Source: a virus
Taxonomy: Duplodnaviria; Heunggongvirae; Uroviricota; Caudoviricetes
IMG/VR virus record: IMGVR_UViG_2778261687_000010
Span: 1-14,000 of that record
DNA: 14,000 nt
Strand: one strand, 5' to 3'
The translations under genes and the position numbers were made by a program. The notes under the pieces were generated by a model. The model did not search any database, was not told the DNA's origin, and worked only from the letters and a program-made list of their open reading frames with translations. Each line of letters begins with the position of its first letter. Positions within the stretch are counted from its first letter, which is position 1. Positions 1-14,000 of this stretch are shown here, piece by piece.

Positions 1-993
1 CTAGTCGGTGGACATTATGTGGACACTCCCACGCATAGGGTTAAATCGTATGGCATCAGTCAGATAATCTGGGGCGAAGTGAGCATATGTCATTGTTTGC
101 TCGATTGTTGTATGACCCAAAATACGCTGTAGCGTGATGATATTCCCGCCGTTGATCATGAAATGTGTTGCGAAGGTATGGCGTAAAACATGCAGTGCCT
201 GACCTTTCGGCAAGTCTGGCTTAATCTTACGAAGAACATCGCGAACTCGCTCATAGTTGGTATCGAACAATTTCCCCGATTTGCGTGTAAGGATGTAGTC
301 CGCGATTTCCTTCGATATCGGAACAGTACGAGCTGGGCCGGTTTTGGTCTTAACAAAGGTCACACGGTTACTTATCACGTTTTCAGCTTTAAGATTACTG
401 GCTTCACCCCATCGTGCTCCTGTATTCAGGCAAAGAACGACAACTCTGCGATCATCCCCTGTAAGGGCATTCAGCAAATGGTGGATCTCTTCTTCGGACA
501 GAAATGACATTTCTGTGTTTTCCAGACGTAACTTCTTCACGGCGCGAAACGGGTTTTCGTGATGAAATTCTTCCATATCTATCAGCAAACTGAACATGCT
601 GGACATGGAACAGAAATCCCTGTTTACCGTGCCAGCAGATACTCCACTATGAAGTCGTTCTGCACGATATTTCATCAGAAAGTTGCGGGTAAGCTCGTAC
701 ACTCTGGGTTCCGCCATTTCTCGGTTGATTTTTTCCAAACGCTTTTTATATGAGTCACCATAGTTGTGATTCTTTCCATGGTAGCTCCACCATAAAGAAA
801 TTAACTCGGATACAAGCCTCCTGTCTGCGGGTTTATCCTGCCATTCTTTATCGTGAAAGTTTGTCAGTACATACCGCTCGTATGCCTGTGCTTCCGCCTT
901 TCTGTCAAATTTGCGTCGAATCCTTCTTCCTGAGGTTCCGCGCGGTCTAACGTCCACTTCAAAACGACCATCATCAAGCTTCTTAATCGACAT
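1..993 (-). CDS. int: Tyrosine recombinase, P2 Int-like integrase
   Basis: ORF 1..1020 on the minus strand. The N-terminus from the internal ATG at 991-993 (MSIKKLDDGRFEVDVRPRG...RRIRRKFD) closely matches my recollection of the P2 Int N-terminus (MAIKKLDDGRYEVDIRP...). The C-terminal catalytic region carries HVLRHTFATH...GGNIITLQRILGH...YAHF, typical of the R..H..R..Y tyrosine recombinase signature. A GGAGGG Shine-Dalgarno sits about 8 nt upstream of the 993 start. The stop codon is at window position 1-3, so attL should lie just outside the window. Confidence 0.9.
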   Translation of the reverse strand: MSIKKLDDGRFEVDVRPRGTSGRRIRRKFDRKAEAQAYERYVLTNFHDKEWQDKPADRRLVSELISLWWSYHGKNHNYGDSYKKRLEKINREMAEPRVYELTRNFLMKYRAERLHSGVSAGTVNRDFCSMSSMFSLLIDMEEFHHENPFRAVKKLRLENTEMSFLSEEEIHHLLNALTGDDRRVVVLCLNTGARWGEASNLKAENVISNRVTFVKTKTGPARTVPISKEIADYILTRKSGKLFDTNYERVRDVLRKIKPDLPKGQALHVLRHTFATHFMINGGNIITLQRILGHTTIEQTMTYAHFAPDYLTDAIRFNPMRGSVHIMSTD

Positions 994-1059
994 AGCGAAG
1001 CCCTCCGATGTATGAATCATTATGTAAATTTTGCGCTAACGCATAGAAAAACCAGATGT

Positions 1060-1359
1060 TTAGCCAATTTTCCGGGTGGAACGGGATGATGTTATGTTGT
1101 CTTGCCCATCAGGGGAGAGAGACGGGGACACCTGCCCCGCAATTGGTGCCGTCTTATCTGTCATTAACCAGAGTGTATATTTTTCAAACATATGTACCTC
1201 TATAACACTTTCTAAGACTTCTGCACGAGCTGGCTGATGGCCAGTTTCGTACTTTTTTATTGTTCCAAGAGCTACCCCAGTAAGCTCTGAAAAATCTTTT
1301 TGAGTTAACCCTTCAGCTTTCCGGATCTGCCGGAGTTTCTCCGCATAATTTCTTGACAT
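1060..1359 (-). CDS. C: Immunity repressor, P2 C-like (99 aa)
   Basis: 99 aa, the same length as P2 C. The C-terminal half (KYTLWLMTDKTAPIAGQVSPSL...) matches remembered P2 C (KYTLWFMTNQIAPESGQIAP...). The N-terminal helix-turn-helix region reads LTQKDFSELTGVALGTIKKYETG. ATG at 1357-1359, divergent from cox. Confidence 0.85.
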   Translation of the reverse strand: MSRNYAEKLRQIRKAEGLTQKDFSELTGVALGTIKKYETGHQPARAEVLESVIEVHMFEKYTLWLMTDKTAPIAGQVSPSLSPDGQDNITSSRSTRKIG

Positions 1360-1467
1360 GGTTCTTGTATCGCAACTATTATTGGTTCTTACAAAAGAAC
1401 CTTGACAAAAGAACCCTAGAACGACTTAAAGCGCCCTAGGAACCCAAACTAACGAAGGATACCACAG
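1360..1467. promoter_or_regulatory. Divergent early promoter/operator region between C and cox
   Basis: 108 bp between divergent C and cox. Five copies of a GGTTCT/AGAACC half-site: inverted copies at 1360-1365 and 1384-1389, direct copies at 1396-1401, 1410-1415 and 1418-1422. These include an 11-bp direct repeat ACAAAAGAACC at 1391-1401 and 1405-1415. A consensus -35 TTGACA lies at 1402-1407 on the plus strand, overlapped by the repeats. An AAGGA RBS sits 9 nt before the cox ATG. Confidence 0.6.
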
Positions 1468-1749
1468 ATGAAGGAACCAGCAGAAAAGGCGCTTTCAGAG
1501 TTGGTGACCCCTGAGCTTTCTGCCGAATATATAGGCAAAACGCCTGCTGCAATTCGCAAAATGGCCACGGCTGGAAAACTGCCGGTAATCCGCATGAAAG
1601 ACCCTCTAAATCCATCAAAAAAAGGTGGGGAAATCTATATCCATCGGGGGGAATGGGATGCTTATGCCATTCATTTGGCTCAAATTGCCCCGCCTGAATG
1701 GCATGACTGGAAGAACCGTTTATTCACGAAAGATAAAAGTGCTCGTTAG
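1468..1749 (+). CDS. cox: Cox-like excisionase / transcriptional regulator
   Basis: 93 aa; IGKTPAAIRKMATAGKLPVIRMKDPLNPSKKGGEIYIHRGEW aligns with remembered P2 Cox (IGKSTGAVRRMIDKGKLPVIDMTDPQSASGRAGEYWVYLPAW). Position is divergent from C, as in P2. Confidence 0.8.
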   Translation: MKEPAEKALSELVTPELSAEYIGKTPAAIRKMATAGKLPVIRMKDPLNPSKKGGEIYIHRGEWDAYAIHLAQIAPPEWHDWKNRLFTKDKSAR

Positions 1750-1775
1750 TAAACTAAATATTATTGGGGATTATC

Positions 1776-2111
1776 ATGAAGACTAAATATGCCACGCTGA
1801 TTCGTAGTCTGTTGCAAAACTATCACGCTCAGGCAAAAACCATTGATAAAGAAACATTCTCTGTACATAGCGATGGCTTGCAGTTAATGGAATTAAACAT
1901 TCAGCTTGCAAAATGCCTTGAGGGTATAACCTCCACTGCTCGCTTTAATAATGATAGTGATGATTTTGAAGAACTGCACAAAATCACGCTTATGGTATTT
2001 GGCGGAAATATACCAACTGAAAATAACATTTCCGGTCTTATGTCGCTGGCTACCACAGCGTTAAAAAGTAATAACTCGCATCTTAAATCTGTTGCAGCTT
2101 CCCAACGTTAA
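1776..2111 (+). CDS. Hypothetical protein (early region)
   Basis: The ORF-track start at 1764 is TTG; the ATG at 1776 is preceded by GGGGA (1766-1770). No motif recognised. Stop at 2109-2111, 9 nt before the next gene. Confidence 0.5.
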   Translation: MKTKYATLIRSLLQNYHAQAKTIDKETFSVHSDGLQLMELNIQLAKCLEGITSTARFNNDSDDFEELHKITLMVFGGNIPTENNISGLMSLATTALKSNNSHLKSVAASQR

Positions 2112-2120
2112 GGAACCGAT

Positions 2121-2690
2121 ATGAAACATTTAATGATTGACCTTGAAACAATGGATAATAAACCGACTTCTGCGATTGCTTCTATCGGTGCTGTATTCTT
2201 TGACCCTGAAACTGGCGAAATGGGTGAACAGTTTTATCAACGTGTCAGCCTGGGCAGCTGTGTAGGCCACGGTCTCACTATGGGGTCAGAAACCGTATTA
2301 TGGTGGATGCGTCAGGATGCCGAAGCGCGTAGCGAGCTGCTTAATGACGATTGTCTGGACTTGCCTCTGACGTTAGCTAATCTGGAAGCTTTTATTACTG
2401 AGCATTCTGACCCATCTAAAGTACAGGTATGGGGGAATAGTGCAGCGTTCGACAATGTTATTTTACGTAATGCATCAGAGAAATGCGGGTTTGCCGATCC
2501 ACTTTGGTACTACTGGAATGACCGTGATGTAAGAACGGTTGTTGAACTGTCAAAAACACTTGGGCTGAATGTTCGTAATATTATTAAGTTTGATGGTGTT
2601 AAACATCACGCTTTATATGATGCCATTCATCAGGCTAAAGTTGTTTCTTATGTCTGGATGTATCTTGTAAAAATAGCCAGTGTGAAATAA
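2121..2690 (+). CDS. DEDDh-type 3'-5' exonuclease-like protein
   Basis: The N-terminal MIDLET motif has the acidic D-x-E pair of DnaQ-like exonucleases, and the C-terminal HHALYDAIH provides an H-x4-D motif. AAGGA RBS at 2110-2114. Confidence 0.6.
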   Translation: MKHLMIDLETMDNKPTSAIASIGAVFFDPETGEMGEQFYQRVSLGSCVGHGLTMGSETVLWWMRQDAEARSELLNDDCLDLPLTLANLEAFITEHSDPSKVQVWGNSAAFDNVILRNASEKCGFADPLWYYWNDRDVRTVVELSKTLGLNVRNIIKFDGVKHHALYDAIHQAKVVSYVWMYLVKIASVK

Positions 2691-2692
2691 CG

Positions 2693-2911
2693 ATGCTTAC
2701 AGTGACCTCTCATGCAAGTAAAAGTGTCATTCACAAGGCATTTTCAGTGCTGACAGAATATTACAACGGCAAAAAGGTATATCAGGTTATTAAGCCAAAA
2801 CATTATTTCTCTGTTCATGTTTCTTATCGCTGGCGATTACTGAGTAAGGATAAGGGCAGAAGCTGGGAACTAATGACACATGAGCGATATAACAAGCAGT
2901 ACAGAATATAG
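2693..2911 (+). CDS. Hypothetical small protein (72 aa)
   Basis: ATG at 2693, 2 nt after the previous stop (possible coupling). Weak RBS and no recognisable motif. Confidence 0.35.
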   Translation: MLTVTSHASKSVIHKAFSVLTEYYNGKKVYQVIKPKHYFSVHVSYRWRLLSKDKGRSWELMTHERYNKQYRI

Positions 2912-2950
2912 TTTTTGCCTTTTACCCATTATTTCACATCTGGATTATTT

Positions 2951-5608
2951 ATGAACGAAACGATACAACAGGACGTTGTGCGCCGTCTTGTTCGGGACTT
3001 TGAATTTAAAGAGCGGGATAAGTATTTGCAGCAGGGCGTTTGCCCTGCCTGTCGTAAGCGCGAATTATTTACCAGCATAGAAAAGCCCTGGATTCTGAAA
3101 TGTGGCCGTGAAAATAACTGCGCACATCAGATTGTCGTGAAAGAGCTGTATCCGGATATCTTTGAAGACTGGTCAAAACGTTACCAGACCACAGAAGATA
3201 ACCCCCATGCAGTAGCTGAGGCGTATCTGCGCGAGGCCAGAGGGCTGGAGACTGAGCCATTAAAAGGCTGTTTTACCCAGGGTGCATTCGTGAAAGATGG
3301 CATGGGGTCGGCAACGGTCAGATTTTCGCTGTCATGCGGTGCAACATGGGAGCGCATCATTGACCAGCCGCAGCGCTTCGGTAAGCAGAAAGCCAACATC
3401 AGGGGAAGCTATGTCGGTCACTGGTGGGTTCCTCCCTTTATCAACCTGCAGGAAGTGAACGAAATCTGGATCACTGAGGGAATCTTCAACGCGCTGAGTC
3501 TGTGCCAGGTAGGGTTACCTGCAGTTGCCACACTGAGCAGTAACAACTATCCGCTGGCCGCACTGGATACGCTGGCCAAAGAACTGGGTGAAAAACCACG
3601 TCCACGTCTTGTATGGGCGTTTGACGGCGATAAAGCCGGCACAAAGCACACACTGGCGTTCGCTGCCCGTAGTGATGCTGCAGGATGGAAAACTCGTGCC
3701 GCGCAGCCGGTGAAATCATCGGCATCGCTGGACTGGAATGACCTGTTGTTACGTAACCGGTTCAGTAAGTCGGACATTAAAAATTATCGCTACTATGGCG
3801 ATCTCCTTCTGGCAAAAAGCCCGACTGAGAAAGCGCTGCTCATGCATCAGCATAACGAGTGGCACTCGTTCTACTTTGAGCATAACTCCCGCATGTACTG
3901 GTTTGAGCTGGATCTGGACAGGTATATGCGAGCCTATGAGCGCATCACCAATACCGGTACCGAAGTGGTGATGGAGTGGGAGGCCAAAGAACGGGCGGTT
4001 AAAGAGTCAGGCGGCGTGACCGAAATAGCTAACTGCTGGCTGACGCCGCTTTACTTTCAGCGGTCTGAACCTACGGACGAGTCCTGGTATTACGTGAAAG
4101 TCAGTATGCCTAACCGGCCAGCCGTGAAAGATACTTTCACGGCTAATCAGCTCACCAGCTCCGCCGAGTTCAAAAAGCGTCTGCTGCACATCGCCAAAGG
4201 GGCGGTGTACACAGGCAGCACCAAACAGCTGGATAAGTTCATCCAGATGCGCCTCCCTGAAATCAAAGAGGTAAAGACGCAGAATTTCATCGGCTATAAC
4301 AAGGATTATGCCGCCTGGTTGTTTAACCGCGTGGCCGTTTGCGATGGCCGGCTGTATGAGATGAACGACGAGGATTACTTCGAAATCAACAGTGCCAGCG
4401 TTAAGAGCCTGAGCCTCACGCCGGCGCTGGATCTGAATCCGAAGCTGAACGAGTTTACTACGGGTTGGGTAGACGATATCTGGACGGCATTTGGTGAAAA
4501 AGGGTATGTGGCGCTGGCGTTCTGGCTGGGGTCGCTGTTTGCCGAACAAATCCGCGAGCGTGACAAGTCATTTCCGTTTCTGGAAATCGTGGGCGAGCCG
4601 GGGACAGGTAAATCCACGCTGATAGAATTTCTCTGGAAGCTCGCCGGCCGTGAGGAATACGAAGGGTTTGACCCATCTAAATCTACCGCCGCCGCGCGTG
4701 GCCGTAACTTCGCCCAGGTCGGTAATCTGCCGGTTGTGCTGATTGAGGGCGACCGTACTACCGATAACGCCAAGCAACGCGCTTTTGACTGGGACGAGCT
4801 GAAATCACTGTATAACGGTCGTGCCTCCCGCGCCGTGGGTATCAAATCGAACAATAACGAGACGTATGAGCCGCCGTTCAGGGGAAGTATTGTGATAGCG
4901 CAAAATGCCGACACAGACGGCAGCAAGGCGTTTCTGGAGCGTATCATCCACATCTATACCGACAAGCGCGGCCAGTCCATTCAGACGCGCCACGCTGCAG
5001 AACGACTTGAACAACTCCCCGTTAGCCAGGTATCCGGATTCACATTACTGGCCACCATGCGCGAAAAAGAAATCATGCAGACGTTCGGCAGGGGGTACGA
5101 GCGAGCTAGGAATGAGCTGGAGTCTAATAGCAGTATTCGCCATATCCGTATTGCAAAGAATCACGCGCAGCTTGTGGGCTTGCTGGAGGCGCTTGCACTT
5201 GTTGTACCGGTGCCGGTTGAACGTATAGAAAAAACGCGTGAAGCCATCACCGCGCTGGCCGTTGAACGTTGTCAGGCACTTAAAAAGGATCATCCTCTGG
5301 TGCAGGAGTTCTGGGAGCTGTTTGATTACTTGGATGAACTGGCACCTTATGGCATCAATCATTCATCAGATGAAAATGAAATCGCGGTTAATTTCAATCA
5401 CATGGAAGAGGTCGCCGCAGCACACCGGCAGCGTATTCCGTTCACGTTAACGGAAATTAAAAAGCTGCTTAAAAACGGCAATGAGCGCCGGTTTATCAGA
5501 CAAAGCACCACGCGCAGCGCGGTAAGTGAGCGCCATAATCGTGGTAAAGGGGATATGCAACGGATGCCGGAAACATTCCGCTGCTGGATATTTGGCCGGG
5601 AAAAGTAA
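2951..5608 (+). CDS. Replicative primase-helicase (zinc ribbon + TOPRIM primase fused to Walker-A NTPase)
   Basis: The ORF-track start at 2915 is TTG; the first ATG is at 2951 (MNETIQQ...). Zinc-ribbon CPACRKRE...CGRENNCAHQ near the N-terminus. TOPRIM-like WITEGIFNALS and AFDGDKAG (DxD). Walker A EIVGEPGTGKSTLIEF, with a candidate Walker B VVLIEGD. The architecture resembles P4 alpha-type primase-helicases and is not a rolling-circle initiator like P2 A. Confidence 0.8.
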   Translation: MNETIQQDVVRRLVRDFEFKERDKYLQQGVCPACRKRELFTSIEKPWILKCGRENNCAHQIVVKELYPDIFEDWSKRYQTTEDNPHAVAEAYLREARGLETEPLKGCFTQGAFVKDGMGSATVRFSLSCGATWERIIDQPQRFGKQKANIRGSYVGHWWVPPFINLQEVNEIWITEGIFNALSLCQVGLPAVATLSSNNYPLAALDTLAKELGEKPRPRLVWAFDGDKAGTKHTLAFAARSDAAGWKTRAAQPVKSSASLDWNDLLLRNRFSKSDIKNYRYYGDLLLAKSPTEKALLMHQHNEWHSFYFEHNSRMYWFELDLDRYMRAYERITNTGTEVVMEWEAKERAVKESGGVTEIANCWLTPLYFQRSEPTDESWYYVKVSMPNRPAVKDTFTANQLTSSAEFKKRLLHIAKGAVYTGSTKQLDKFIQMRLPEIKEVKTQNFIGYNKDYAAWLFNRVAVCDGRLYEMNDEDYFEINSASVKSLSLTPALDLNPKLNEFTTGWVDDIWTAFGEKGYVALAFWLGSLFAEQIRERDKSFPFLEIVGEPGTGKSTLIEFLWKLAGREEYEGFDPSKSTAAARGRNFAQVGNLPVVLIEGDRTTDNAKQRAFDWDELKSLYNGRASRAVGIKSNNNETYEPPFRGSIVIAQNADTDGSKAFLERIIHIYTDKRGQSIQTRHAAERLEQLPVSQVSGFTLLATMREKEIMQTFGRGYERARNELESNSSIRHIRIAKNHAQLVGLLEALALVVPVPVERIEKTREAITALAVERCQALKKDHPLVQEFWELFDYLDELAPYGINHSSDENEIAVNFNHMEEVAAAHRQRIPFTLTEIKKLLKNGNERRFIRQSTTRSAVSERHNRGKGDMQRMPETFRCWIFGREK

Positions 5609-5654
5609 CGGTTCACTAGTGCCTAACTTTATTGTTAGGGGAAGGAGCGAACAT

Positions 5655-5700
5655 TGAAGCAATAGGGGCGTTATCTTTATTGCTTCATTCTTATTTTAAA
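5655..5700 (+). terminator. Hairpin plus T-tract after the primase gene (candidate intrinsic terminator)
   Basis: 10-bp inverted repeat TGAAGCAATA (5655-5664) / TATTGCTTCA (5678-5687) followed by TTCTTATTTT. The stop codon of the convergent minus-strand gene (5677-5679) lies inside the hairpin. A second short hairpin, CCTAAC-N6-GTTAGG, is at 5622-5639. Confidence 0.45.
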
Positions 5701-6396
5701 GTTCTTTAATTTACCGTACAGAGTATCCCGCAGGGAAAACGAAGGAACCCAATCAAAACCAGTACGCCAGGGGCGTGGACTGCCATGAAAGCAAACAACC
5801 GCCACATTATCAGGGACTTTCCCTGTCGCAGCCTCAGAGGCTAAATTTGCATTGAAGCCAATCATCGAGGGGGTGGCGATGTCACATTTATAACTAACAA
5901 TTGAGCCAGGAATGATATCCTGCCATAGGGCTGGTTTTATGATGCTACCGAGAAATCCCTGATCACCCCATTTGTCTTCAGTCTGACAATTGCGCATAAT
6001 TTTCTCAGGATCAATAATGAATTGTTCCCAAATCGTCTTTTTAATCGACGCCGGAATCATCATTATTGATGAGTTTACTCTTGAGGCATGGTTAAACTCC
6101 CGAAGCATTGTAAATTTCTTCGCACCTTCGAAAATATGAATATCTCCCGTGACCACAACATCTACGTCAAAATAGAGTAAATCTTGGTCTCCAAGGACTG
6201 GGTGATTAGGATTAAATAGTTCAATTTTAGACCACCATCCCGGCCAGTTATAAAGCAAAGGGGTTGTGTTAACTCCAGGAATATTATCTGCATCGGTTAA
6301 ACATATAGATGGAATATCTTTGAACTGACGATGAAGCCATTGGGCGTGTTTAGGGGTAAACTCTTTACTACATTTAAGAACTGAGACTATTAACAT
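5677..6396 (-). CDS. Cargo protein, putative GT-A-fold (DxD) nucleotide-sugar transferase-like; function unknown
   Basis: 239 aa with an ATG at 6394-6396 and a strong GGGAGG Shine-Dalgarno about 8 nt upstream. Visibly more AT-rich than the flanking prophage genes. Contains LLYFDVDVVVTGDI (hydrophobic strand plus DxD) and C-terminal FHGSPRPW, reminiscent of GT8-type glycosyltransferase motifs. No obvious transmembrane segments. Bounded by terminator-like hairpins on both sides. Confidence 0.75.
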   Translation of the reverse strand: MLIVSVLKCSKEFTPKHAQWLHRQFKDIPSICLTDADNIPGVNTTPLLYNWPGWWSKIELFNPNHPVLGDQDLLYFDVDVVVTGDIHIFEGAKKFTMLREFNHASRVNSSIMMIPASIKKTIWEQFIIDPEKIMRNCQTEDKWGDQGFLGSIIKPALWQDIIPGSIVSYKCDIATPSMIGFNANLASEAATGKVPDNVAVVCFHGSPRPWRTGFDWVPSFSLRDTLYGKLKNFKIRMKQ

Positions 6397-6500
6397 AAGA
6401 TGCCTCCCAAAATTTGGAAAGATAATATCATGTTTAGGAGGGGGGGACTATTAATCACTTGGTCATTCATCGACGTTGATAGATGGGAATCTGTTACATC

Positions 6501-6536
6501 TCAGAAAATAAAAGCACCGGTAGCGGTGCTTTTTTC
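6501..6536 (-). terminator. Intrinsic terminator downstream of the ogr-like gene
   Basis: Hairpin AGCACCG-GTAG-CGGTGCT at 6513-6530, flanked by T-runs on both strands: TTTTTT at 6531-6536 on the plus strand, and TTTATTTTCTGA on the minus strand (complement of 6501-6512). It lies directly after the ogr stop (6536-6538) and separates ogr from the 5677-6396 cargo gene. Confidence 0.55.
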
Positions 6537-6865
6537 TATGCGGCAGCAGTGCCGTCCTGACTCAGAAACTTTAACATCAGCTGCTTTTGCTGGATATCAA
6601 GGCTGTTACAGATAGTGGCGATCAACGCATCGCTGGATTTGGCGCTGGGGCTGATGGTATGTGAGAATGTCATATTCATCACAAAAGTGTGACCACATTC
6701 AACATCGGTACACGCGCAATATAAATCCGACAGTTCCTTGTGTTTTCGGGCTGTTTTTTTGATAACAGCCCTTGCCTCACATACCGGACAGTAAACCTTC
6801 ATTACCCGCATATCCATCGCTCCGGAAGTTGGAAAACGATGATATTTTAGCCTTTTTGCGAACAT
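6536..6865 (-). CDS. ogr: Ogr/Delta-family zinc-finger late transcription activator
   Basis: CPVCEARAVIKK...YCACTDVECGHTFV fits the Ogr/Delta C-x2-C...C-x4-C zinc-finger pattern (P2 Ogr: CPLCQ...YHQCQNVNCSATFI). The longest ORF starts at the ATG at 6863-6865, overlapping the portal stop as TAATG. Internal ATGs at about 6809-6817 (MDMRVMKVYCP...) would give a more Ogr-like N-terminus. Confidence 0.75.
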   Translation of the reverse strand: MFAKRLKYHRFPTSGAMDMRVMKVYCPVCEARAVIKKTARKHKELSDLYCACTDVECGHTFVMNMTFSHTISPSAKSSDALIATICNSLDIQQKQLMLKFLSQDGTAAA

Positions 6866-7884
6866 TAATCACCTTCCAGCTCACTGTCTTTCAGGAAATT
6901 AAGGTACAGGTGGGGCGGTACATCACTTTCCTGTTCCACTGCGGCGGTAAACATGCGCTGAATGGGCAAAATTTCTGCTTTGCGGTAGGTTTTGGACGCT
7001 TTCTCAACATCTCCCATTACTGCGCCGTTCGTCGGGATAATCCCCGCCAGTCCTGCCGGGAATCGATGCGCGGTCAGTACGTCCTGGGCGCTGATGCTCT
7101 TGATGTTCTGAAACTCATCTTTGGCGCTGATATCCCCAATCGGGATAAATTTGATGCCGTCCGGATCGCCTTTGGGGATGTTCACAAACATGGTGCTGAA
7201 GTTCCCGATCCCCTTTGACTGCTCCAGCTTCTGAATAATTTCTTCTTCCACTTCATCAGTCATATTTGGGTCGTTACAGTAGATCATGCCACCTGTGTGT
7301 CCGCCGTTATGGTAGTAACGCCGACGAAAAATTGTTGCCTCACCGTTAAGCAGGGCAGAATGGATACCGCTGATATAATCCGGCAGACCATAAATCGCCT
7401 GTTGCGGATCGTACTGCCTGAGAAAAATAATATCTTCAGGCGGATAAATCATCGGTTCACCCTGCTGCAGTACCACAAACTCCCCGGTCTTACGCTGGCG
7501 GGTATAGAGTGCCGGCAGCGGGTACAGTGCCACCACATCCCCCCAGCCGTTACGCACTTTCAGAATGGCCACATCACCGAAGGTCAGCCAGTCGAACACG
7601 GCTGCACCAAGCTGTTCATGCGTCAGTCCGCCGTCTTTATAGTTTGCCGTCACCATATTGCGACGGGCATACAGCACACCGCCGTGCTGCGCGTTCAGGT
7701 TCACCAGTTGCGCCAGCGCCAGCCGGTCAATCGGGAGCGTCCAGTGTTCCGCTTCATTGTCATACCAGACGTCTGTGTAGTTTGTGCCGGTCGTCAGAAT
7801 GGGTTCCGGTTTACCCAGGGTAATAAGGCTCATATGGCGCGGCTTGCTGGCGGTGCGGCGTTCCCTGTATTTCCGTTTTTTCAT
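6865..7884 (-). CDS. Q: Portal protein, P2 gpQ-like
   Basis: 339 aa, with a size and position typical of P2 Q (immediately downstream of the terminase large subunit on the same strand). AGGGA RBS upstream; the start overlaps the stop of the upstream gene as ATGA. Confidence 0.75.
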   Translation of the reverse strand: MKKRKYRERRTASKPRHMSLITLGKPEPILTTGTNYTDVWYDNEAEHWTLPIDRLALAQLVNLNAQHGGVLYARRNMVTANYKDGGLTHEQLGAAVFDWLTFGDVAILKVRNGWGDVVALYPLPALYTRQRKTGEFVVLQQGEPMIYPPEDIIFLRQYDPQQAIYGLPDYISGIHSALLNGEATIFRRRYYHNGGHTGGMIYCNDPNMTDEVEEEIIQKLEQSKGIGNFSTMFVNIPKGDPDGIKFIPIGDISAKDEFQNIKSISAQDVLTAHRFPAGLAGIIPTNGAVMGDVEKASKTYRKAEILPIQRMFTAAVEQESDVPPHLYLNFLKDSELEGD

Positions 7885-8855
7885 GCTGCTTTCCCTAAGT
7901 TACCCCAGCGTGATTTTCGCTGGTTTTCAAAGTTTAATGGCTCGTTGTCAATGGCATGGGCGATAGCCCAGAAACTGTCTGCGTGTCCTGTTTCTGCTGT
8001 GCGATCGGCGACGAAAGTCATTGCGTTGCCGCTGGCCGTGGACGTACGGCGGATGGTCATAAAGCTGGCGGCGATTTCGGTCTTCTCCTTATCCCATTCC
8101 ACGCGGCCGTCTTCGATAACGTCGATCATCTTCATCACCAGACGATTTTTGGTCTCGACGCCGTAGCGGATCGCCACTGCCTGACGCATGGCAAAGTGCT
8201 GAACGTCTTCAAAGACACCGCTACCCAGTCCAGTGATATCAATGCCGATGTAGGTCATGTTGTACTGGCCAAACAGCTTCTTAATCTGTGCCGCCTGCCA
8301 CTTCCAGTTCATCCCCTGCCAGTGGAATACACGCAGTACCCGAAATTTTTCGCCGGCCACTATCGGCGGCGCGATGATCACGAAGGTGGAGGTGTCTCCG
8401 CTGCGAGCCGGGTCATAACCCGCCCACACTTCACGGTTGCCGAACGGCCGGGGCAGGTTTTCGTCATGATCCTCCCAGATATCCGGATCTACACAGCAGC
8501 GTTCTACGTGAGAGAACGAAAATACGCTGTCCTTGCTGTCCACGAACACGCACATATACAGCATGTTGAAAGTGTCGCGGTTGTAGCGGTTGCGCAGCTT
8601 CCCGATGCTGGCGAGATTAAACCCGCCTGCGATCGCGTCTTCCATTGTGATGATGTAGCGCCACTGCCCATCAGGACATAACCGTCCACCGTCGCGCAGC
8701 TCCTTCTCCGTGGGAAATTGTACGCGCGCGCGTTTTTTGTCACCGCGCTTCCATTCTTCACCAGTCCAGAACGGGTACGCCTGGTGCGTTTTGCTGCTGG
8801 GGGTGGAAAAGTAGGTGGTTCGCCATTTGTCGTGTGTGGCCATCGCGCTGGCCAC
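7881..8855 (-). pseudogene. P: Terminase large subunit (P2 gpP-like), 5'-truncated: nuclease domain only
   Basis: The ORF begins with GTG at 8853-8855 and the frame is open only back to about 8885. The C-terminal half carries nuclease-domain features (WAGYDPARSGDTSTFVIIA, GIDITGLGSG, HADSFWA). No Walker A (GxxxxGK[ST]) anywhere. At about 324 aa it is far shorter than typical large terminases, so the ATPase half is missing. Confidence 0.7.
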
Positions 8856-8879
8856 TTCGTTTAATTTTGCAAAGTTGGG

Positions 8880-9100
8880 TATCTGCTATTGAAACCCGTC
8901 TGGGTGAGGCGGAAGAAGCGGTATCTGATGTGCAGGACGATGTGGACACCGTGAAGGAAGTAGTGGACACCGAAGATTTTGCGCGTCTGGTGGGGAACCT
9001 GCCGGAGCTGGTGAAAAACTTCAGCAAGCTGAATAACAAAGTTACTCAACTGCCGGACAAGAAATTCAGCAAGGGCAAAAAAGGCTTCAATTTCCTGTAA
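8880..9100 (+). pseudogene. O: Capsid scaffold (P2 gpO-like) 3' fragment
   Basis: Short acidic, coiled-coil-like ORF tail (AIETRLGEAEEAVSDVQDDVDTVKEVVDTEDF...KKFSKGKKGFNFL) ending 34 nt before the capsid gene, as O precedes N in P2. Only about 70 codons are plausibly scaffold. The assignment rests on position and composition. Confidence 0.4.
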
Positions 9101-9134
9101 GGGATAACACTACTTTTCTTTAAGGAAAAAGAAT

Positions 9135-10163
9135 ATGCAATTAAATGCGAAAGCCCGTGAGTTTCTGCTTCAGTATCACACCGGGCTGCGTGAATCCTAC
9201 GGGGCGACCGACAGCGAACGCTGGTTTGCACTCACCGACCCCAAAGAAACCCAGCTGCGCAATGCGCTGATGGAGCAGTCTGATTTCCTGAATCTGATCA
9301 CCGTTGCCGATGTCGATCAGCTGCAGGGGCAGGTGGTTCCGGTTGGCAGCTCTGGCCTGTATACCGGGCGTGTACTGGATGGCCGCTTCCGTAAGAAAGT
9401 GGGCGTGAGTGGTAATGATTACAGTCTGGTCGAGACCGACTCATGCGCCGCACTCACCTGGCAGTTGCTTTCTGTCTGGGCGAACGCCGGCGATGAAAAC
9501 GAGTTTTTCCAGCGTGTTCAGGAGTTCACCAATCAGGCGTTTGCGCTGGATATGCTGCGTATCGGCTTTAACGGTACCAAAGTGGCTGAGACCACGAACG
9601 CGGAAACCAACCCGAACGGCGAGGATGTGAACAAGGGCTGGCATCAGATCGTCAAAGAGTGGAAGGACGGCCAGCAGATCATCACTGATGCGGTGGTGCT
9701 TGACGGTGACGGGAAAGGCGATTACGTGTCGCTGGATGCAATGGCCTCCGACCTTATCAACGCCAAAATCCCGGCACAGTACCGTAATGATCCACGCCTG
9801 GTGGTTCTTGTCGGCGCTGATCTGGTCGCGGCGGAGTCGTTCCGTCTGTATCAGAAAGCAGACAAACCCACGGAGAAGATCGCCGCGCAACTGCTGTCTG
9901 ACAGCATCGCCGGCCGCACGGCTTACGTACCGCCGTTTATGCCAGGCAAACGCATGATTGTTACGACACTGCCAAACCTGCACATCTACACCCAGCGCGG
10001 CACGCGTCAGCGTAAAGCGGAGTTTGTGGAAGACCGTAAACAGTACGAAAACAAATACCTGCGTAACGAAGGTTATGCGGTTGAGTATCCGGAACTGTAC
10101 GCCGCGTTTGATGAAAGTGCGGTAGCTATCGGGGCACCTGTCGCGCCTCCGGCAGGCGAGTAA
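9135..10163 (+). CDS. N: Major capsid protein, P2 gpN-like
   Basis: 342 aa, with several blocks matching remembered P2 gpN: FLNLITVADV vs FLTRINIVPV, IGFNGTKVAETTNAETNP vs AGFNGVKRAETSDRSSNP, DPRLVVLVGADLVAAESF vs DPDLVVIVGRQLLADKYF. AAGGAAAAAG RBS upstream. Confidence 0.85.
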   Translation: MQLNAKAREFLLQYHTGLRESYGATDSERWFALTDPKETQLRNALMEQSDFLNLITVADVDQLQGQVVPVGSSGLYTGRVLDGRFRKKVGVSGNDYSLVETDSCAALTWQLLSVWANAGDENEFFQRVQEFTNQAFALDMLRIGFNGTKVAETTNAETNPNGEDVNKGWHQIVKEWKDGQQIITDAVVLDGDGKGDYVSLDAMASDLINAKIPAQYRNDPRLVVLVGADLVAAESFRLYQKADKPTEKIAAQLLSDSIAGRTAYVPPFMPGKRMIVTTLPNLHIYTQRGTRQRKAEFVEDRKQYENKYLRNEGYAVEYPELYAAFDESAVAIGAPVAPPAGE

Positions 10164-10173
10164 GGGGGATTTA

Positions 10174-10743
10174 ATGCAACTGTCACCGGCACAGCGCCAC
10201 AGCGCACGAATTGAAGCGGAGCGGTTACTGCGACAGCAGCAGTCTCTGGACACGGAAACCAGCCTGCATATTCAGATTGTCGCGCTGGAGAAAGATGTCG
10301 CCGCAGCTGCAGCGATTGAAAGCCGCGCTGAGCGAATGGAATTTAAGCGTGATGTGCTGTTACCGCGCTGGATGCCAACCGCGCAATCCTGGCTGGAAGG
10401 TGACAGTGTGCAACAGAATCCTGTTTTTGCCTGGTGTGTCGTCTGGCTGTTTGATACAGGCCAGTTTGACCAGGCGCTGGACTGGGCGGATGTGGCAATC
10501 CAGCGGGGGCAGGAAACCCCGGCCGCGTTCGGCAGTACGTTCCCGGTGTTTGTGGCGGATACGGTGTTGTCCTGGGCGGAAGCGGAAGCCGTACAGGGGC
10601 ATGATGTGGAGCCGTATTTTGGCCGTACGCTGGAAAACGTGACGCAGCACTGGAATGTGTATGAGGTCATTAAGGCCAAATACGGGGATGGCCATAAAAG
10701 GCGCGTTATCGCCGGCTATCGAAATGTACGACGCGCTGAATGA
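10174..10743 (+). pseudogene. M: Terminase small/endonuclease subunit (P2 gpM-like), probably 3'-truncated
   Basis: N-terminal MQLSPAQRHSARIEA, LLPRWMPT and WLFDTGQFDQALDWADVAI resemble P2 gpM (SPAQRH..., LLPFWLPW, WRLDTGDIAGALEIARYAL). At 189 aa it is shorter than the roughly 247 aa I recall for P2 gpM. Its 3' end overlaps, out of frame, an ORF with tape-measure character. AAGGGGGA RBS upstream. Confidence 0.65.
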
Positions 10744-11419
10744 TGCCGCCGCAAAAGGGATTGATAATCAGGCATTAAAGACAGTACAGCGTGACGCGCT
10801 CCGGTTCAGCATGACCTACGGTGCCAGCGCGGTGGAGTTCGTCAAATCCACAGAGAACATTAACGCTTCCATTGCCGGCCTTACCGCCAGCGAGCTGCCG
10901 AAAGTGACGAAGGTCGCTAATACGCTGGCATTTGCCCTGAAATCCACATCCGCCGACACGGCGGAGTTCATGGGGCAGATGTACGGTAACTTTTCCGCCG
11001 ATGCGGCGCGGCTGGGTAAAGTCCAGTTCGCTGAGCAACTGGCGGGGAAAATGGTGTATATGCGCAAGGTCTTCGGTACCGAAATGGGTACCATCAAAGA
11101 CCTGATGGAAGGGGCGCGAGGTGTCGGGACTAACTACGGCGTCGGGCTGGATGAACAGCTGGCGGTGCTGGGACAGCTAAATCGTACGCTGGGAACAGAA
11201 GCCAGTAGCGCTTACGAAGGCTTCATGACCGGCGCGATGGAGGGAGCTAAAAAGCTGGGGCTGTCCTTCACGGACTCCACCGGCAAAATGCTGTCCATGC
11301 CTGAAATGCTGATCAAGCTGCAGGGCAAATACGGCAAAAGCCTGGAAGGGAACCTGAAAGCCCAGGCGGAGCTGGATGCGGCATTTGGTGACAGTTCAGC
11401 GGTGATAAAACACCTGTAG
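10655..11419 (+). pseudogene. T: Tail tape measure protein fragment (core region)
   Basis: The translation has tape-measure core character: Ala/Gly/Leu-rich with repeated GxxxA and LGxxA blocks (e.g. LAVLGQLNRTLGTEASSAYEGFMTGAMEGAKKLG). It is only about 250 aa, starts inside the M ORF in another frame, and no tail genes precede it. Confidence 0.6.
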
Positions 11420-11454
11420 CCGGGTGTTATCTGCTGATTAAACACTGGGATGAT

Positions 11455-11901
11455 GTGAAAGCGGCGGTGATGAATACGGCAGCGTTTACCGCCGTGGCTG
11501 GTGTGGTGGAATGGCTTGCCGGCGTGTTTTCCGCTGCGTGGCAATGGATCACGGACGGCTGGAACAGCTTTATTGCGCTGCTGACCGGGTTTTCACCGTC
11601 ACAGGCGTTAAGCGGCATGGCCAGCGGGATTGTTTCCCTGTTTGATAACGTCTGGCAGACCATCAAAGGCGGGTTCCTGAAATCGTGGAACTGGATTGTC
11701 GGAAAACTCAATAAAATTCCGGGCGTCGATATTTCACTGGCGAACGAATCTCAACCGGCACTGACAACGAATACCAGAACATTATCGCCTGATTTCTCAA
11801 CCAGCCCGCGTCATGCGGGCTTTATCGCACCCACCAGACCTCACCAGACGCATTCTGAGCGCCGACAGTATCTACACCCGCTCCAATCCCAACTTAATTA
11901 G
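11455..11901 (+). pseudogene. T: Tail tape measure protein fragment (second piece, different frame)
   Basis: W-rich repeats typical of tape-measure C-terminal regions (AAWQWITDGWNSF..., VWQTIKGGFLKSWNWIVGKL). The frame differs from the 10655-11419 piece, and the last 40 or so codons look like out-of-frame read-through. Confidence 0.45.
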
Positions 11902-11976
11902 CTTTAAAAGCACAGCAAGGCGCTGATGCAGCCTGCCACGACGAAATAACGGCGGAAGTGACGAAAACGGCGCTAC

Positions 11977-12000
11977 ACCGCACCCGCCTGCGGTTTTCGT
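11977..12000 (+). terminator. Candidate intrinsic terminator
   Basis: ACCGCA-CCCGCC-TGCGGT hairpin (6-bp GC-rich stem) at 11977-11994 followed by TTTCGTGTT. Confidence 0.35.
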
Positions 12001-12452
12001 GTTGAGAATGATTTCAGTTTTTCTGGGGGTACAAAACACATCGCCAGACTGCGCCAGCGCTGGGGCTTTGGCGGTAGTTCACCGACTGAAATATGTGAAA
12101 CAGATTTCAAGGATTACAGTTTTTGTGCAATTACCGGCCGTGGGTGAAAAATGACGGTGCCGGACTTCATGCGGGTTTAACAGTGATTACGTGACTTTTA
12201 ACGTAACGGCCGCAGCGGGATCACGTAAGCGGGAGAAAGTGACAAGGCCTTATTTGATGTGTTCTGGCGCGGAATGACCGTGAGATGCGGAACTGAAATA
12301 CTTTGCACAGCCTGAACTATAGCCATACCTACATTAACGTACTGCACCAATGCTCAAATCACTAACAGAGATATATACAAAACCACCAACAAATCAGGGT
12401 GATTTCTGACCACTTCTAATTTTTTCAAAAATTTAGGGGGAGCATCGGAAAA

Positions 12453-12718
12453 CCGTCACAAACATCACAGATTTAAAAAATATCATTTATCTATATGATA
12501 TGTATAAGTAAATTCATATATTGAAAACCATCACAAGAGCATCACAAGAGCATCACAGTGTGACGGCCTTAAAACATCACAACTCTGTTTTATAACTCGC
12601 TGAATTTATAGGGTGTGACGGTTTACGTTACGTTTTGTGATGGTTTTACCATCACAACATTTATTCATGATAATCAGATGGTTAATGGTTTTTTTTGTGG
12701 GGCGTGATGGTTGTGACG
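12453..12718. repeat. Iteron-like array: about 12 copies of C(C/A)(G/A)TCACA(A/G) in both orientations flanking an AT-rich tract
   Basis: Direct copies at 12453-12460, 12463-12470, 12529-12536, 12540-12547, 12551-12558, 12575-12582 and 12649-12656. Inverted copies (TGTGA(C/T)GG) at 12559-12566, 12614-12621, 12636-12643, 12703-12710 and 12712-12718. Includes a tandem 11-mer CATCACAAGAG x2 (12529-12550) and a perfect palindrome TGTGATGG-TTTTA-CCATCACA (12636-12656). An AT-rich stretch at 12471-12528 sits between the first and second repeat clusters. Confidence 0.7.
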
Positions 12719-12785
12719 TTTTTCCGATGGGCAACTTAAAAATGCTAAGTAAGACGAAACAAAATTTTAACAGCGTGGTGGGATA

Positions 12786-12805
12786 GCGCCCCTGTTCAGG
12801 GGCGC
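12786..12805. terminator. GC-rich hairpin just downstream of the acyltransferase gene (possible terminator)
   Basis: GCGCCCCTG-TT-CAGGGGCGC perfect inverted repeat beginning 8 nt past the minus-strand stop codon (12813-12815). There is no strong U-tract on either side, so its terminator function is uncertain. Confidence 0.3.
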
Positions 12806-12812
12806 AAATGTT

Positions 12813-14000
12813 CTACTTTGCAATCTGAAGTTGAGGACGCTTATGTATGATGCTGCGACTTTCGACATATTTGTACATAACCGGCGCAATGATACCTGCC
12901 GCAATAATTGCACAAATCTGCCAAACATAGTTTCCTGCACTATATAAATAATGTTTAGATACTGTTTGAGTTATCCCATGAACTAAATAAAGGGAGAAAC
13001 TGCAGGTTCCCAGCATAGTTACAGGCAGGGATGTAAGTAAGCCAAAGTAATCACATCCGCACTTTATTGTGTAGAAAACAATAAACATATAAAGCGGAGT
13101 TGTAGTGTTGTAAGCATGTCGAGTAAAATATATGGCTGCGAATAATAATAAAGCGCAGATTATATCTGATGGGCGCTTGTTGCTCTTGATTGTAGCGACA
13201 AGAAATCCTGCAAGGAAATACATTATATAACTCAGGTGTTGTTCATTGTTTATAAAATACTTGAATAATAAAACACATCCCATTAAAAAAATAACAAATG
13301 CTTCTTTATATTTGATGTTTTTCATTATCAGATATAAAAATGGAATTGCAAGGTATAGGCGTAATTCCCAGACTAACGTCCAGAACACACCAGATGTGGC
13401 AATCTGGAGCGATACACCATTGATGTTAGCGCCAGGCGGATTGAATATAAATGGTAATGAAGATATAAACCATTGCGATACTGGAGTATGGTTATCCGGA
13501 TTCATGATAAATGTTGCAATATATATTATAAATAAAAGAACAACTACAGGTGGGTAAATTCGCATGAATCGTGAAATTGCAAAGCTTTTTACATCGAAGG
13601 AGTCCGCTAGTGCCTTTTTGAAAAATAAAAAAGCAGACAGCATAAAAAAGACCCCAACAGATAACTCTCCTGTTAGATATATGGCGCGTTTTACATTGCT
13701 GAGTGTAATGTACTCAAGAGACCAGTATATATCTGATTCTCCTCCGGCTCTCCAGTAAAGATGGAATACAGCAACCATTGCTGCACAAATTCCACGTAAG
13801 CCATCAAGCGAGGCGTATTTATGTTTTGCAGGTGTAATACCCAATAACTTAGAAGTGACATATATTGTCGCTATAAGTATGCTGAGATAAAGTCCGTATT
13901 CAAAAATATATTTCATTATAATAATTACGCTTGGTGTTTTTATGGATGTTAACATTTTTTGCGGATGTCGGGAATGCTCTGTGGACTTATTGACACGCAT
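12813..14000 (-). CDS. Acyltransferase-3 family integral membrane protein (O-antigen/polysaccharide O-acetyltransferase-like)
   Basis: SLDGLRGICAAMVAVFHL matches the N-terminal signature of acyltransferase-3 / OafA / Oac-type enzymes (LDGLRG...A..VV..H). The remainder is highly hydrophobic with multiple predicted transmembrane segments. The region is very AT-rich. The true start is uncertain: the ORF is open to the window edge, and in homologues the LDGLRG motif lies about 10-35 residues from the N-terminus, so an internal start is plausible. Confidence 0.8.
   Translation of the reverse strand: MRVNKSTEHSRHPQKMLTSIKTPSVIIIMKYIFEYGLYLSILIATIYVTSKLLGITPAKHKYASLDGLRGICAAMVAVFHLYWRAGGESDIYWSLEYITLSNVKRAIYLTGELSVGVFFMLSAFLFFKKALADSFDVKSFAISRFMRIYPPVVVLLFIIYIATFIMNPDNHTPVSQWFISSLPFIFNPPGANINGVSLQIATSGVFWTLVWELRLYLAIPFLYLIMKNIKYKEAFVIFLMGCVLLFKYFINNEQHLSYIMYFLAGFLVATIKSNKRPSDIICALLLFAAIYFTRHAYNTTTPLYMFIVFYTIKCGCDYFGLLTSLPVTMLGTCSFSLYLVHGITQTVSKHYLYSAGNYVWQICAIIAAGIIAPVMYKYVESRSIIHKRPQLQIAK

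Follow-up and report, generated by a model that had tools for sequence, protein, structure and literature searches.

A lone GT8-like glycosyltransferase gene in the cos-proximal hotspot of a P2-like prophage, a candidate modifier of the lipopolysaccharide core

What does a solitary glycosyltransferase gene do in a prophage slot that is better known for genes such as tin and old? The question is raised by a 14,000-nucleotide stretch of DNA from a virus of the Caudoviricetes (IMG/VR record IMGVR_UViG_2778261687_000010, positions 1 to 14,000), analysed at its full length and referred to below as the window, in which a gene for a protein of 239 amino acids (aa) stands alone between a replication gene and the ogr and portal genes of a P2-like prophage. 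In P2-like phages the cos-proximal region extending from the replication gene to the portal gene constitutes a hotspot, occupied in P2 by tin and old. The 1,650 arrangements recorded there consist for the most part of defence genes, but other cargo, including par systems and the CDT toxin, is found as well (Rousset et al. 2022, PMC9122126). An original prediction, made from the sequence of the window, had proposed that the gene product is a transferase that modifies either host lipopolysaccharide (LPS) or proteins, or incoming phage DNA or proteins, or else that it is a divergent Tin-like exclusion protein.

Among these alternatives, the comparative evidence presented here favours LPS modification. 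With a probability of about 0.45, the gene would encode a membrane-associated glycosyltransferase whose target is the LPS core or some other lipid-linked glycan, with lysogenic conversion as the outcome. The present analysis establishes the fold, catalytic motifs and family membership of the protein, the cargo status and cassette borders of its gene, the presence of a clade-specific C-terminal tail and the link between this tail and the genomic context. Hotspot, fold and family annotation had all been described before, and the protein and its P1 homologue are uncharacterised; the new elements are the cationic tail of the clade, a second independent origin of such a tail in an LPS-core cluster, and the contrast with relatives located in phage head modules.

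Fold, family and C-terminal tail of the protein

The window gene, although labelled 'hypothetical protein' in RefSeq, is not an orphan. Its product matched PHROG 1962 ('glycosyltransferase'; E 5.8e-81, residues 1-223 of 239) and is 40% identical to PmgQ of phage P1 and HdmD of P7 (BLASTP and tblastn; E 5e-49), with which it is homologous over the whole catalytic domain and shares all conserved motifs. Closer copies were identified by tblastn in phage genomes, namely in the coliphages Chlobot (75% identity) and Chuche (55%). Scans of the window protein against Pfam, NCBIfam and PADLOC, and a single-sequence search of PDB sequences, gave no matches; with the single sequence as query, Pfam PF01501 (Glyco_transf_8) was not matched at E up to 10, and neither was any defence family of PADLOC-DB v2, in agreement with the original view that the protein belongs to no classic or named defence family.

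The features of the gene referred to in this section are as follows:
5677..6396, minus strand: glycosyltransferase coding sequence, 239 aa, ATG start; GT8-like (GT-A, retaining-type), PHROG 1962 / P1 PmgQ family
6160..6168, minus strand: DxD codons D77-V78-D79, the metal and nucleotide-sugar binding motif
5680..5766, minus strand: codons of the cationic C-terminal tail, residues 211-239 (RTGFDWVPSFSLRDTLYGKLKNFKIRMKQ), net charge +5, clade-specific

The AlphaFold2 model of the protein, built on a 63-sequence alignment (pLDDT 96.7, pTM 0.93), has a GT-A fold (a single Rossmann-like alpha/beta/alpha domain) that is nearest to GT8 structures, and a Foldseek comparison with the PDB placed LgtC, glycogenin and other GT8 enzymes at the top ranks. 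The family profile aligned with GT8 sequences of the PDB at E 9e-8 to 5e-6, the nearest solved structures being those of the protein-directed GT8 enzymes Gat1 (the Skp1 alpha-galactosyltransferase) and glycogenin; in hhalign comparisons it also aligned with the Escherichia coli LPS outer-core enzymes WaaJ (E 2e-5, probability 76%) and WaaO (E 3e-3). The protein contains no membrane-spanning or hydrophobic segment (maximum Kyte-Doolittle value of 1.0 in a 19-residue window). It is, as modelled, a soluble, divergent GT8-like GT-A enzyme of the retaining type, in agreement with the soluble GT-A transferase expected from the sequence.

The two motifs pointed out originally, LLYFDVDVVV (D77, D79) and FHGSPRPW (H204-W210), are present and invariant or nearly so across the 63 homologues. 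The same holds for G144-D145-Q146 and for H204...P207-R208-P209-W210, and D77, D79, K57, G144, D145 and H204 are invariant throughout the family. The DxD, GDQG and HGxPRPW motifs align to those of glycogenin, Gat1, WaaJ and WaaO, with Arg replacing the Lys of the GT8 KPW motif, while C32 and S168-Y169-K170 are invariant residues specific to the window's family. Identity to the CAZy GT8 enzymes (LgtC; WaaJ, WaaO, WaaR, WaaI and WaaT; glycogenin; Gat1; GlyE) amounts to 10-16%, and the Waa enzymes, of about 338 aa, carry a C-terminal domain that is missing from the 239-aa window protein. Because the links to GT8 appear only at the level of profile and fold, with no PF01501 match, the PmgQ-type family is best described, by sequence comparison, as a divergent sister family of GT8 and not as a curated GT8 member.

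The window protein and its closest homologues differ from the rest of the family in the segment that follows HGxPRPW. In all 35 database homologues with at least 47% identity, this segment comprises 28-43 aa with a net charge of +3 to +11, whereas in the remaining 83 homologues its median length is 12 aa and its median charge 0 (Mann-Whitney p 1e-17); a cationic tail is absent in 81 of these 83 proteins from outside the window's clade. Residues 222-238 of the window tail (residues 211-239, charge +5) are predicted to form a helix. The lone clade is full-length in Escherichia, Citrobacter, Salmonella, Klebsiella, Shimwellia, Pectobacterium and Vitreoscilla, at 47-84% identity.

Presence of the tail is linked to genomic context. 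When IMG/VR was searched with the family alignment, more than 561 relatives were obtained, the best 80 of which formed 36 clusters at 85% identity; partner genes and head-module markers (capsid, portal, connector and head-closure genes) were counted within 3 kb. An MptE-like or Methyltransf_21 (FkbM-type) partner accompanied 21 of the 32 tail-less clusters, and head-module markers 20 of them. In contrast, the four clusters with the cationic tail (the window's clade) had no such partner, and one of them (L037) had a marker, a P2-type capsid gene approximately 3 kb away in an apparently degraded prophage. All four are lone genes near prophage ends or beside tail-fibre assembly genes, none being situated between capsid and connector, and neither an MptE-like nor a methyltransferase partner was found in any other context of the clade that was examined. 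The typical order in head modules is capsid, partner, glycosyltransferase and connector, of which three further examples were found outside the IMG/VR survey.

The phage relatives with partners include PmgQ itself. It has a short acidic C-terminus (charge -5) and is encoded in a C1-controlled operon, also served by a late promoter, together with Ppp and the two MptE-like proteins PmgO and PmgP (weak matches to PF01973), whereas the window gene is alone and its product has the cationic tail. PmgQ is nonessential in P1, as found by CRISPR interference and by deletion (PMC10695390); our literature search found no functional study of pmgQ, pmgO, pmgP or hdmD. In Citrobacter phage phiNP a PmgP-like and PmgQ-like pair lies between the lysis genes and terS. 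In Ewingella P2-like prophages and in the IMG/VR contig L032 the genes for terminase, portal, MptE-like, MptE-like, Nucleotid_trans and glycosyltransferase proteins are closely packed into one operon, which occupies the portal-to-rep region where the window gene is also found, and the top structural matches in BFVD are proteins in which the glycosyltransferase domain is fused with MptE-like domains.

The sole other tailed sequences (P0054 and P0049) are chromosomal genes of Halomonas. In a tree of the catalytic domain only, they form a separate branch, sister to tail-less head-module copies, which indicates that the tail arose twice. The copy of H. cupida lies in a waa-like cluster (GT4, WaaP/Kdo-family kinase, GT4, epimerase, Ugd, glycosyltransferase and WaaZ homologue), and that of H. 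binhaiensis adjoins a WaaZ homologue (36% identity to K-12 WaaZ, E 2e-52) and Ugd (UDP-glucose dehydrogenase). Tail-less copies of other Halomonadaceae (Halomonas getboli, Onishia and Aidingimonas) are located in prophage head modules. Judging from the tree and these contexts, both tailed lineages left the head module independently, one for an LPS-core locus and the other for prophage cargo sites; the window gene itself is outside any waa-type cluster, unlike the Halomonas tailed lineage of the same family.

The hotspot slot, the cassette and the parent prophage

The signals and borders that surround the gene are the following:
6403..6408, minus strand: Shine-Dalgarno sequence GGGAGG, 6 nt 5' of the ATG, read directly from the sequence
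6422..6430, minus strand: candidate extended -10 element TGATATTAT, picked out by eye
6510..6533, minus strand: intrinsic terminator right behind the stop codon of ogr, consisting of a 10-bp stem and then UUUUAUUUU
5655..5687, plus strand: 14-bp hairpin followed by a T-run, overlapping the glycosyltransferase stop codon
2915..5608, plus strand: left hotspot border, toprim/DUF5906 primase-helicase-type replication gene (897 aa)
6536..7884, minus strand: right hotspot border, ogr (6536-6865) and portal (6865-7884)

The location between the replication gene and the portal corresponds to the P2 tin/old hotspot as defined in PMC9122126, and the reading of the locus as single-gene AT-rich cargo also held, the lone 239-aa open reading frame (ORF) having a GC content of 41% against 52-53% in its neighbours. 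The respective values, with those for third codon positions in brackets, are 0.410 (0.379) for the glycosyltransferase gene, 0.521 (0.594) for rep and 0.529 (0.615) for portal, with 0.411 for the interval 5609-6535. In the part of the supplementary tables of Rousset et al. (2022) available to us, neither a glycosyltransferase nor the accession of the window protein was among the entries.

Like the tin/old cargo of the P2 A-to-Q hotspot, the window gene has a cos-proximal position and varies among relatives. In three E. coli prophages (L005, L006 and L007) with a structural module 78-81% identical to that of the window, the slot contains either a DUF2806 gene (L005 of strain mip270_05, 6795-7832) or, in L006 and L007, only a small conserved hypothetical ORF beside the rep gene and no other cargo, which bore out the expectation of variable cargo as opposed to conserved core. 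In an Ewingella P2-like prophage (L033 8086-13933), HicB, MarR, TumE and SLFN/AlbA_2-HATPase genes are found between the glycosylation operon and gpA.

The elements from which transcriptional insulation had been deduced (the GGGAGG ribosome-binding site, the terminator after ogr and the 3' hairpin) are all present. The gene runs co-directionally with terminase-portal-ogr, and the terminator at 6510-6533 (fold energy -15.3 kcal/mol, z = -5.0) is predicted to insulate it from this late transcript. The hairpin at 5655-5687 (-15.7 kcal/mol, z = -5.2) has a U-tract on the plus strand only; as a consequence, it qualifies as a canonical terminator of rep transcription, whereas on the glycosyltransferase transcript it is no more than a hairpin. 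No Ogr-type late-promoter element (TGT-N12-ACA) was detected upstream of the gene, and the count of such elements in the window is not above chance. A simple consensus scan, which needs a -35 element, found no sigma-70 promoter upstream.

Pairwise blastn comparisons revealed that DNA homology among the carriers of the gene begins and ends within -22/+1 bp of the ORF. Only the leader of about 20 nt with the ribosome-binding site travels with the gene, and a promoter or terminator common to the carriers was rejected, since the flanks are unrelated beyond this distance. The carriers include lambda-like, P2-like and other myovirus prophages, and in each of them the gene stands by itself, either at a prophage end or beside tail-fibre assembly genes. 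Thus, lone homologues at 49-84% identity were found (i) in the b region of a lambda-like phage, adjoining a tail-fibre assembly gene, (ii) at the end of a P2-like genome, (iii) at the edge of an unrelated myovirus prophage, (iv) behind the tail-fibre assembly gene in a P2-like prophage, (v) in a Citrobacter member of the same prophage family, but at its opposite end, and (vi) beside tail-fibre genes in Klebsiella and in IMG/VR contigs. Nine further contexts were examined; in six of them the gene and the adjacent tail or tail-fibre genes are convergent, which excludes it from their operon. Because the homology stops at the ORF borders and the gene occurs alone in unrelated carriers, the window gene appears to be a mobile single-gene cassette (moron). 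Its autonomy is indicated by the terminator after ogr, the lack of an Ogr-type element upstream and the convergence with neighbouring genes elsewhere.

Among 5,426 complete E. coli genomes, 18, mostly of strains from pigs, have a 28.9-kb prophage between pheL and raiA to which the window region is 99.9-100% identical. The window represents a derivative of this prophage with four internal deletions (junctions at 8881, 10683, 11418 and 11775). They have removed part of the large terminase gene (terL) along with the scaffold gene, the head-completion-to-tail genes, a segment of the tape-measure gene, and the baseplate and fibre genes for the most part; from these losses, the window copy is judged defective and unable to make virions. 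Several deletion derivatives, the window among them, have kept the glycosyltransferase ORF intact, with 100% identity. Other strains, e.g. PK5, YPE10, PSJ-12 and E89 (the last with IS100), carry different deletion derivatives. The allele group of the gene was found in 24 of the 5,426 genomes, 18 of these 24 having one allele at one locus, and the 54% allele of L010 had no match among the E. coli complete genomes.

The prophage as a whole is a mosaic, in which a P2/HP1-type structural module is combined with the toprim/DUF5906 primase-helicase instead of the gpA nickase, which is the replication protein of its closest structural relatives. It differs from P2 also in the position of ogr, which lies beside the portal gene, directly downstream of it, and near att in P2.

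Weighing the candidate functions

If the enzyme acts on LPS, its gene would be transcribed on its own in the lysogen, outside the late operon. The protein would bind a UDP-hexose via its DxD/Mn2+ site, dock on the cytoplasmic face of the inner membrane by means of the cationic C-terminal tail and add an alpha-linked sugar to a lipid-linked glycan. The likeliest acceptor would be the LPS core, with an undecaprenyl-pyrophosphate-linked O-unit or a unit of enterobacterial common antigen as alternatives. The altered surface glycan would amount to lysogenic conversion, whose likely benefit is receptor masking against LPS-binding phages. The donor, the acceptor, the membrane binding, the expression in lysogeny and any phage-resistance phenotype are inferred. 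In favour of the proposal, the protein has GT8 motifs and its profile aligns with WaaJ and WaaO, the gene is autonomous and behaves as a cassette, its clade has a tail of its own, and an independent tailed lineage resides in the LPS-core cluster of Halomonas. LgtC, whose GT8 activity is directed at lipooligosaccharide, probably attaches to the membrane via its basic, aromatic C-terminus. The ORF is intact in derivatives that are no longer able to make virions. Also consistent with this proposal are the OafA/Oac-type Acyl_transf_3 gene at the other cargo site of the prophage and the frequent location of the gene next to receptor-binding fibre genes, with which it is convergent.

Several points weigh against it. 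Most family members sit in phage head modules, which points to virion glycosylation as an ancestral role; on the most economical view, the usual job of the family would be late and virion-associated, probably the glycosylation of a structural protein. P1 PmgQ is dispensable and uncharacterised. The Halomonas tailed lineage is 39% identical to the window protein and represents a different lineage. The target of the cationic tail could be nucleic acid or some other partner instead of the membrane, and closeness to tail-fibre genes may merely reflect a general cargo hotspot. The extended -10 element TGATATTAT is a candidate, no firmer promoter having been found, and, with the intact prophage and its deletion derivatives sharing 99.9% identity, the retained ORF says little on selection.

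The enzyme might alternatively act, as its relatives probably do, on a structural protein of its own phage (capsid, tail or tail fibre), being expressed late by read-through from the terminase-portal-ogr genes, with which it is co-directional. In mycobacteriophages, glycosyltransferases of the phage are known to glycosylate the virion. The partner genes and head markers of most tail-less clusters, the tight Ewingella/L032 operon in the same portal-to-rep region, the MptE-like fusions among the BFVD matches and the proximity of the lone-clade gene to tail-fibre genes all agree with such a role. However, the window's clade differs from the systems of mycobacteriophages and PBCV-1 (e.g. A64R) in that it lies outside the structural module, has lost its partners in every context examined and has gained a tail not found in head-module members. 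In addition, a strong terminator separates the window gene from the late operon, the lone-clade gene is usually convergent with late genes, the bare ORF hops between phages with unrelated virion proteins, sister prophages with approximately 79% identical structural genes do without it, and it is still intact in a prophage that is unable to make virions. We consider this explanation unlikely, although it stands ahead of the other alternatives. Next to it, and slightly less probable, comes the view that the gene is a passenger, either a silent or decaying hitch-hiker or an enzyme acting on some other soluble acceptor without consequence to phage or host. The dispensability of PmgQ in P1, the rarity of the allele group in E. 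coli, the candidate status of the promoter, with none found by consensus scan, and the fact that AT-rich genes are often silenced by H-NS would fit a passenger; the intact catalytic residues, the highly confident structure model, the maintenance of full length across seven genera at 47-84% identity and the strong ribosome-binding site conserved with the cassette would not.

Phage exclusion or host manipulation, i.e. glycosylation of a protein or nucleic acid of the host or of an incoming phage that blocks a competitor or alters the host, has in our estimation a still somewhat smaller chance. It is suggested by the hotspot, which is enriched in anti-phage systems (PMC9122126), and by the DUF2806 gene in the slot of a relative, DUF2806 co-occurring with a reverse transcriptase (RVT_1) in that part of the hotspot tables of the same study which was available (PMC9122126). 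The closest solved structures by profile (Gat1 and glycogenin) are protein-directed and the cationic tail could bind DNA or RNA. By analogy, GT-A toxins, glycogenin and Skp1 glycosyltransferases are all enzymes that modify proteins. Against these stand the lack of any defence match in PADLOC, Pfam and NCBIfam, the absence of a partner sensor or effector gene and the Halomonas tailed lineage, which points to LPS. The proposed relationship with Tin was not upheld (BLASTP E 2.5; hhalign probability 0.2%), and the anti-phage role had been argued from the position of the gene, in a hotspot that also holds non-defence cargo. GT-A enzymes of DNA-hypermodifying phages (JGT-like) are characterized by R...DDD...EDY/F motifs and neighbouring 5mYOX or ThyS genes (bioRxiv 10.1101/2023.12.21.572611). 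The window protein has GT8 motifs instead, and genes of such a pathway are absent from the prophage; an enzyme of this type was therefore rejected, and DNA glycosylation is unlikely. More doubtful still is a one-gene anti-phage effector based on glycosylation, in which a GT8-like transferase, derived from a virion-glycosylation module and produced by the prophage, would modify the DNA or protein of an incoming phage or a host factor that it needs; if true, this would add a class of defence absent from current catalogues. The rest of the probability belongs to explanations other than LPS-core modification, virion glycosylation, a passenger gene and exclusion.

LPS modification, the reading we prefer, has precedents among prophages, whose known routes of seroconversion are GtrABC, acetyltransferases and polymerase swaps; our literature search found no paper on a prophage GT8 enzyme that acts on the LPS core. 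Seroconversion systems (GtrABC of P22, SfX and CPS-53; Oac/OafA) are likewise cargo of prophage ends, and they alter LPS and block adsorption. GtrABC, however, consists of three genes, for a flippase, a bactoprenol GT2 enzyme and a periplasmic GT-C enzyme, whereas the window has one soluble cytoplasmic GT-A enzyme. Conversion of the GtrABC type was rejected, given a single gene without hydrophobic segment, GT8-like and neither GT2 nor GT-C, and with no neighbouring gtr genes, so that LPS conversion by the window enzyme, if any, must follow a different route. If confirmed, rewriting of the LPS core by a single cytoplasmic GT8-like enzyme would represent a simpler, Gtr-independent form of lysogenic conversion, which would matter for phage host range as well as for serotyping and phage therapy. 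The comparative pattern illustrates in compact form the possible re-targeting of a phage enzyme and offers a first functional lead for the uncharacterised pmgO, pmgP and pmgQ of P1. The window gene by itself is one rare cargo gene, and a good experimental lead as distinct from a demonstrated new system.

Other genes of the prophage and related gene groupings

The right-end cargo site of the prophage, adjoining raiA, is occupied by a gene (window 12813-14000, minus strand, 36% GC) for a membrane acyltransferase of the OafA/Oac type (Acyl_transf_3, PF01757, E 6e-29), a second candidate modifier of surface glycans. In strain I3 this segment is present and the rest of the window is without a match. 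Directly 5' of the replication gene, a 72-aa ORF (2693-2911, plus strand) encodes a ParE-like toxin domain (PF24732, E 8e-17); it is preceded by a gene for an Rv2179c-like 3'-5' exonuclease (2121-2690, plus strand), and no obvious antitoxin was called beside it.

The MptE-like partners PmgO and PmgP were also considered as possible WaaZ homologues, an idea that was set aside (hhalign E 1e-3 to 4e-3, probability 8-21%); PmgO/PmgP-type and WaaZ-type proteins all match Pfam MptE-like below threshold. PmgQ-type glycosyltransferases recur with one or two MptE-like proteins in P1 (L008 3144-5702) and in L033 (5342-7663), L032 (4333-6660) and L014 (6001-7227). Such groupings sometimes include Nucleotid_trans (PF03407), and a fusion with an MptE-like domain was also found in P0086.

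In siphophage prophages of marine and soil origin, an FkbM-type methyltransferase (Methyltransf_21/Methyltransf_24) and a glycosyltransferase are encoded between the major capsid and head-tail connector genes (L018 6405-7615; L019 5969-7636; L015 3673-4997; L034 6477-7648), an arrangement that suggests a methylated sugar on a virion protein. Finally, in the metagenomic contig L014 (1241-11174) the tail-less homologue and its MptE-like partner are located among very large genes for adhesins of the Big_1/invasin/intimin type, and this gene pair could be involved in adhesin glycosylation.

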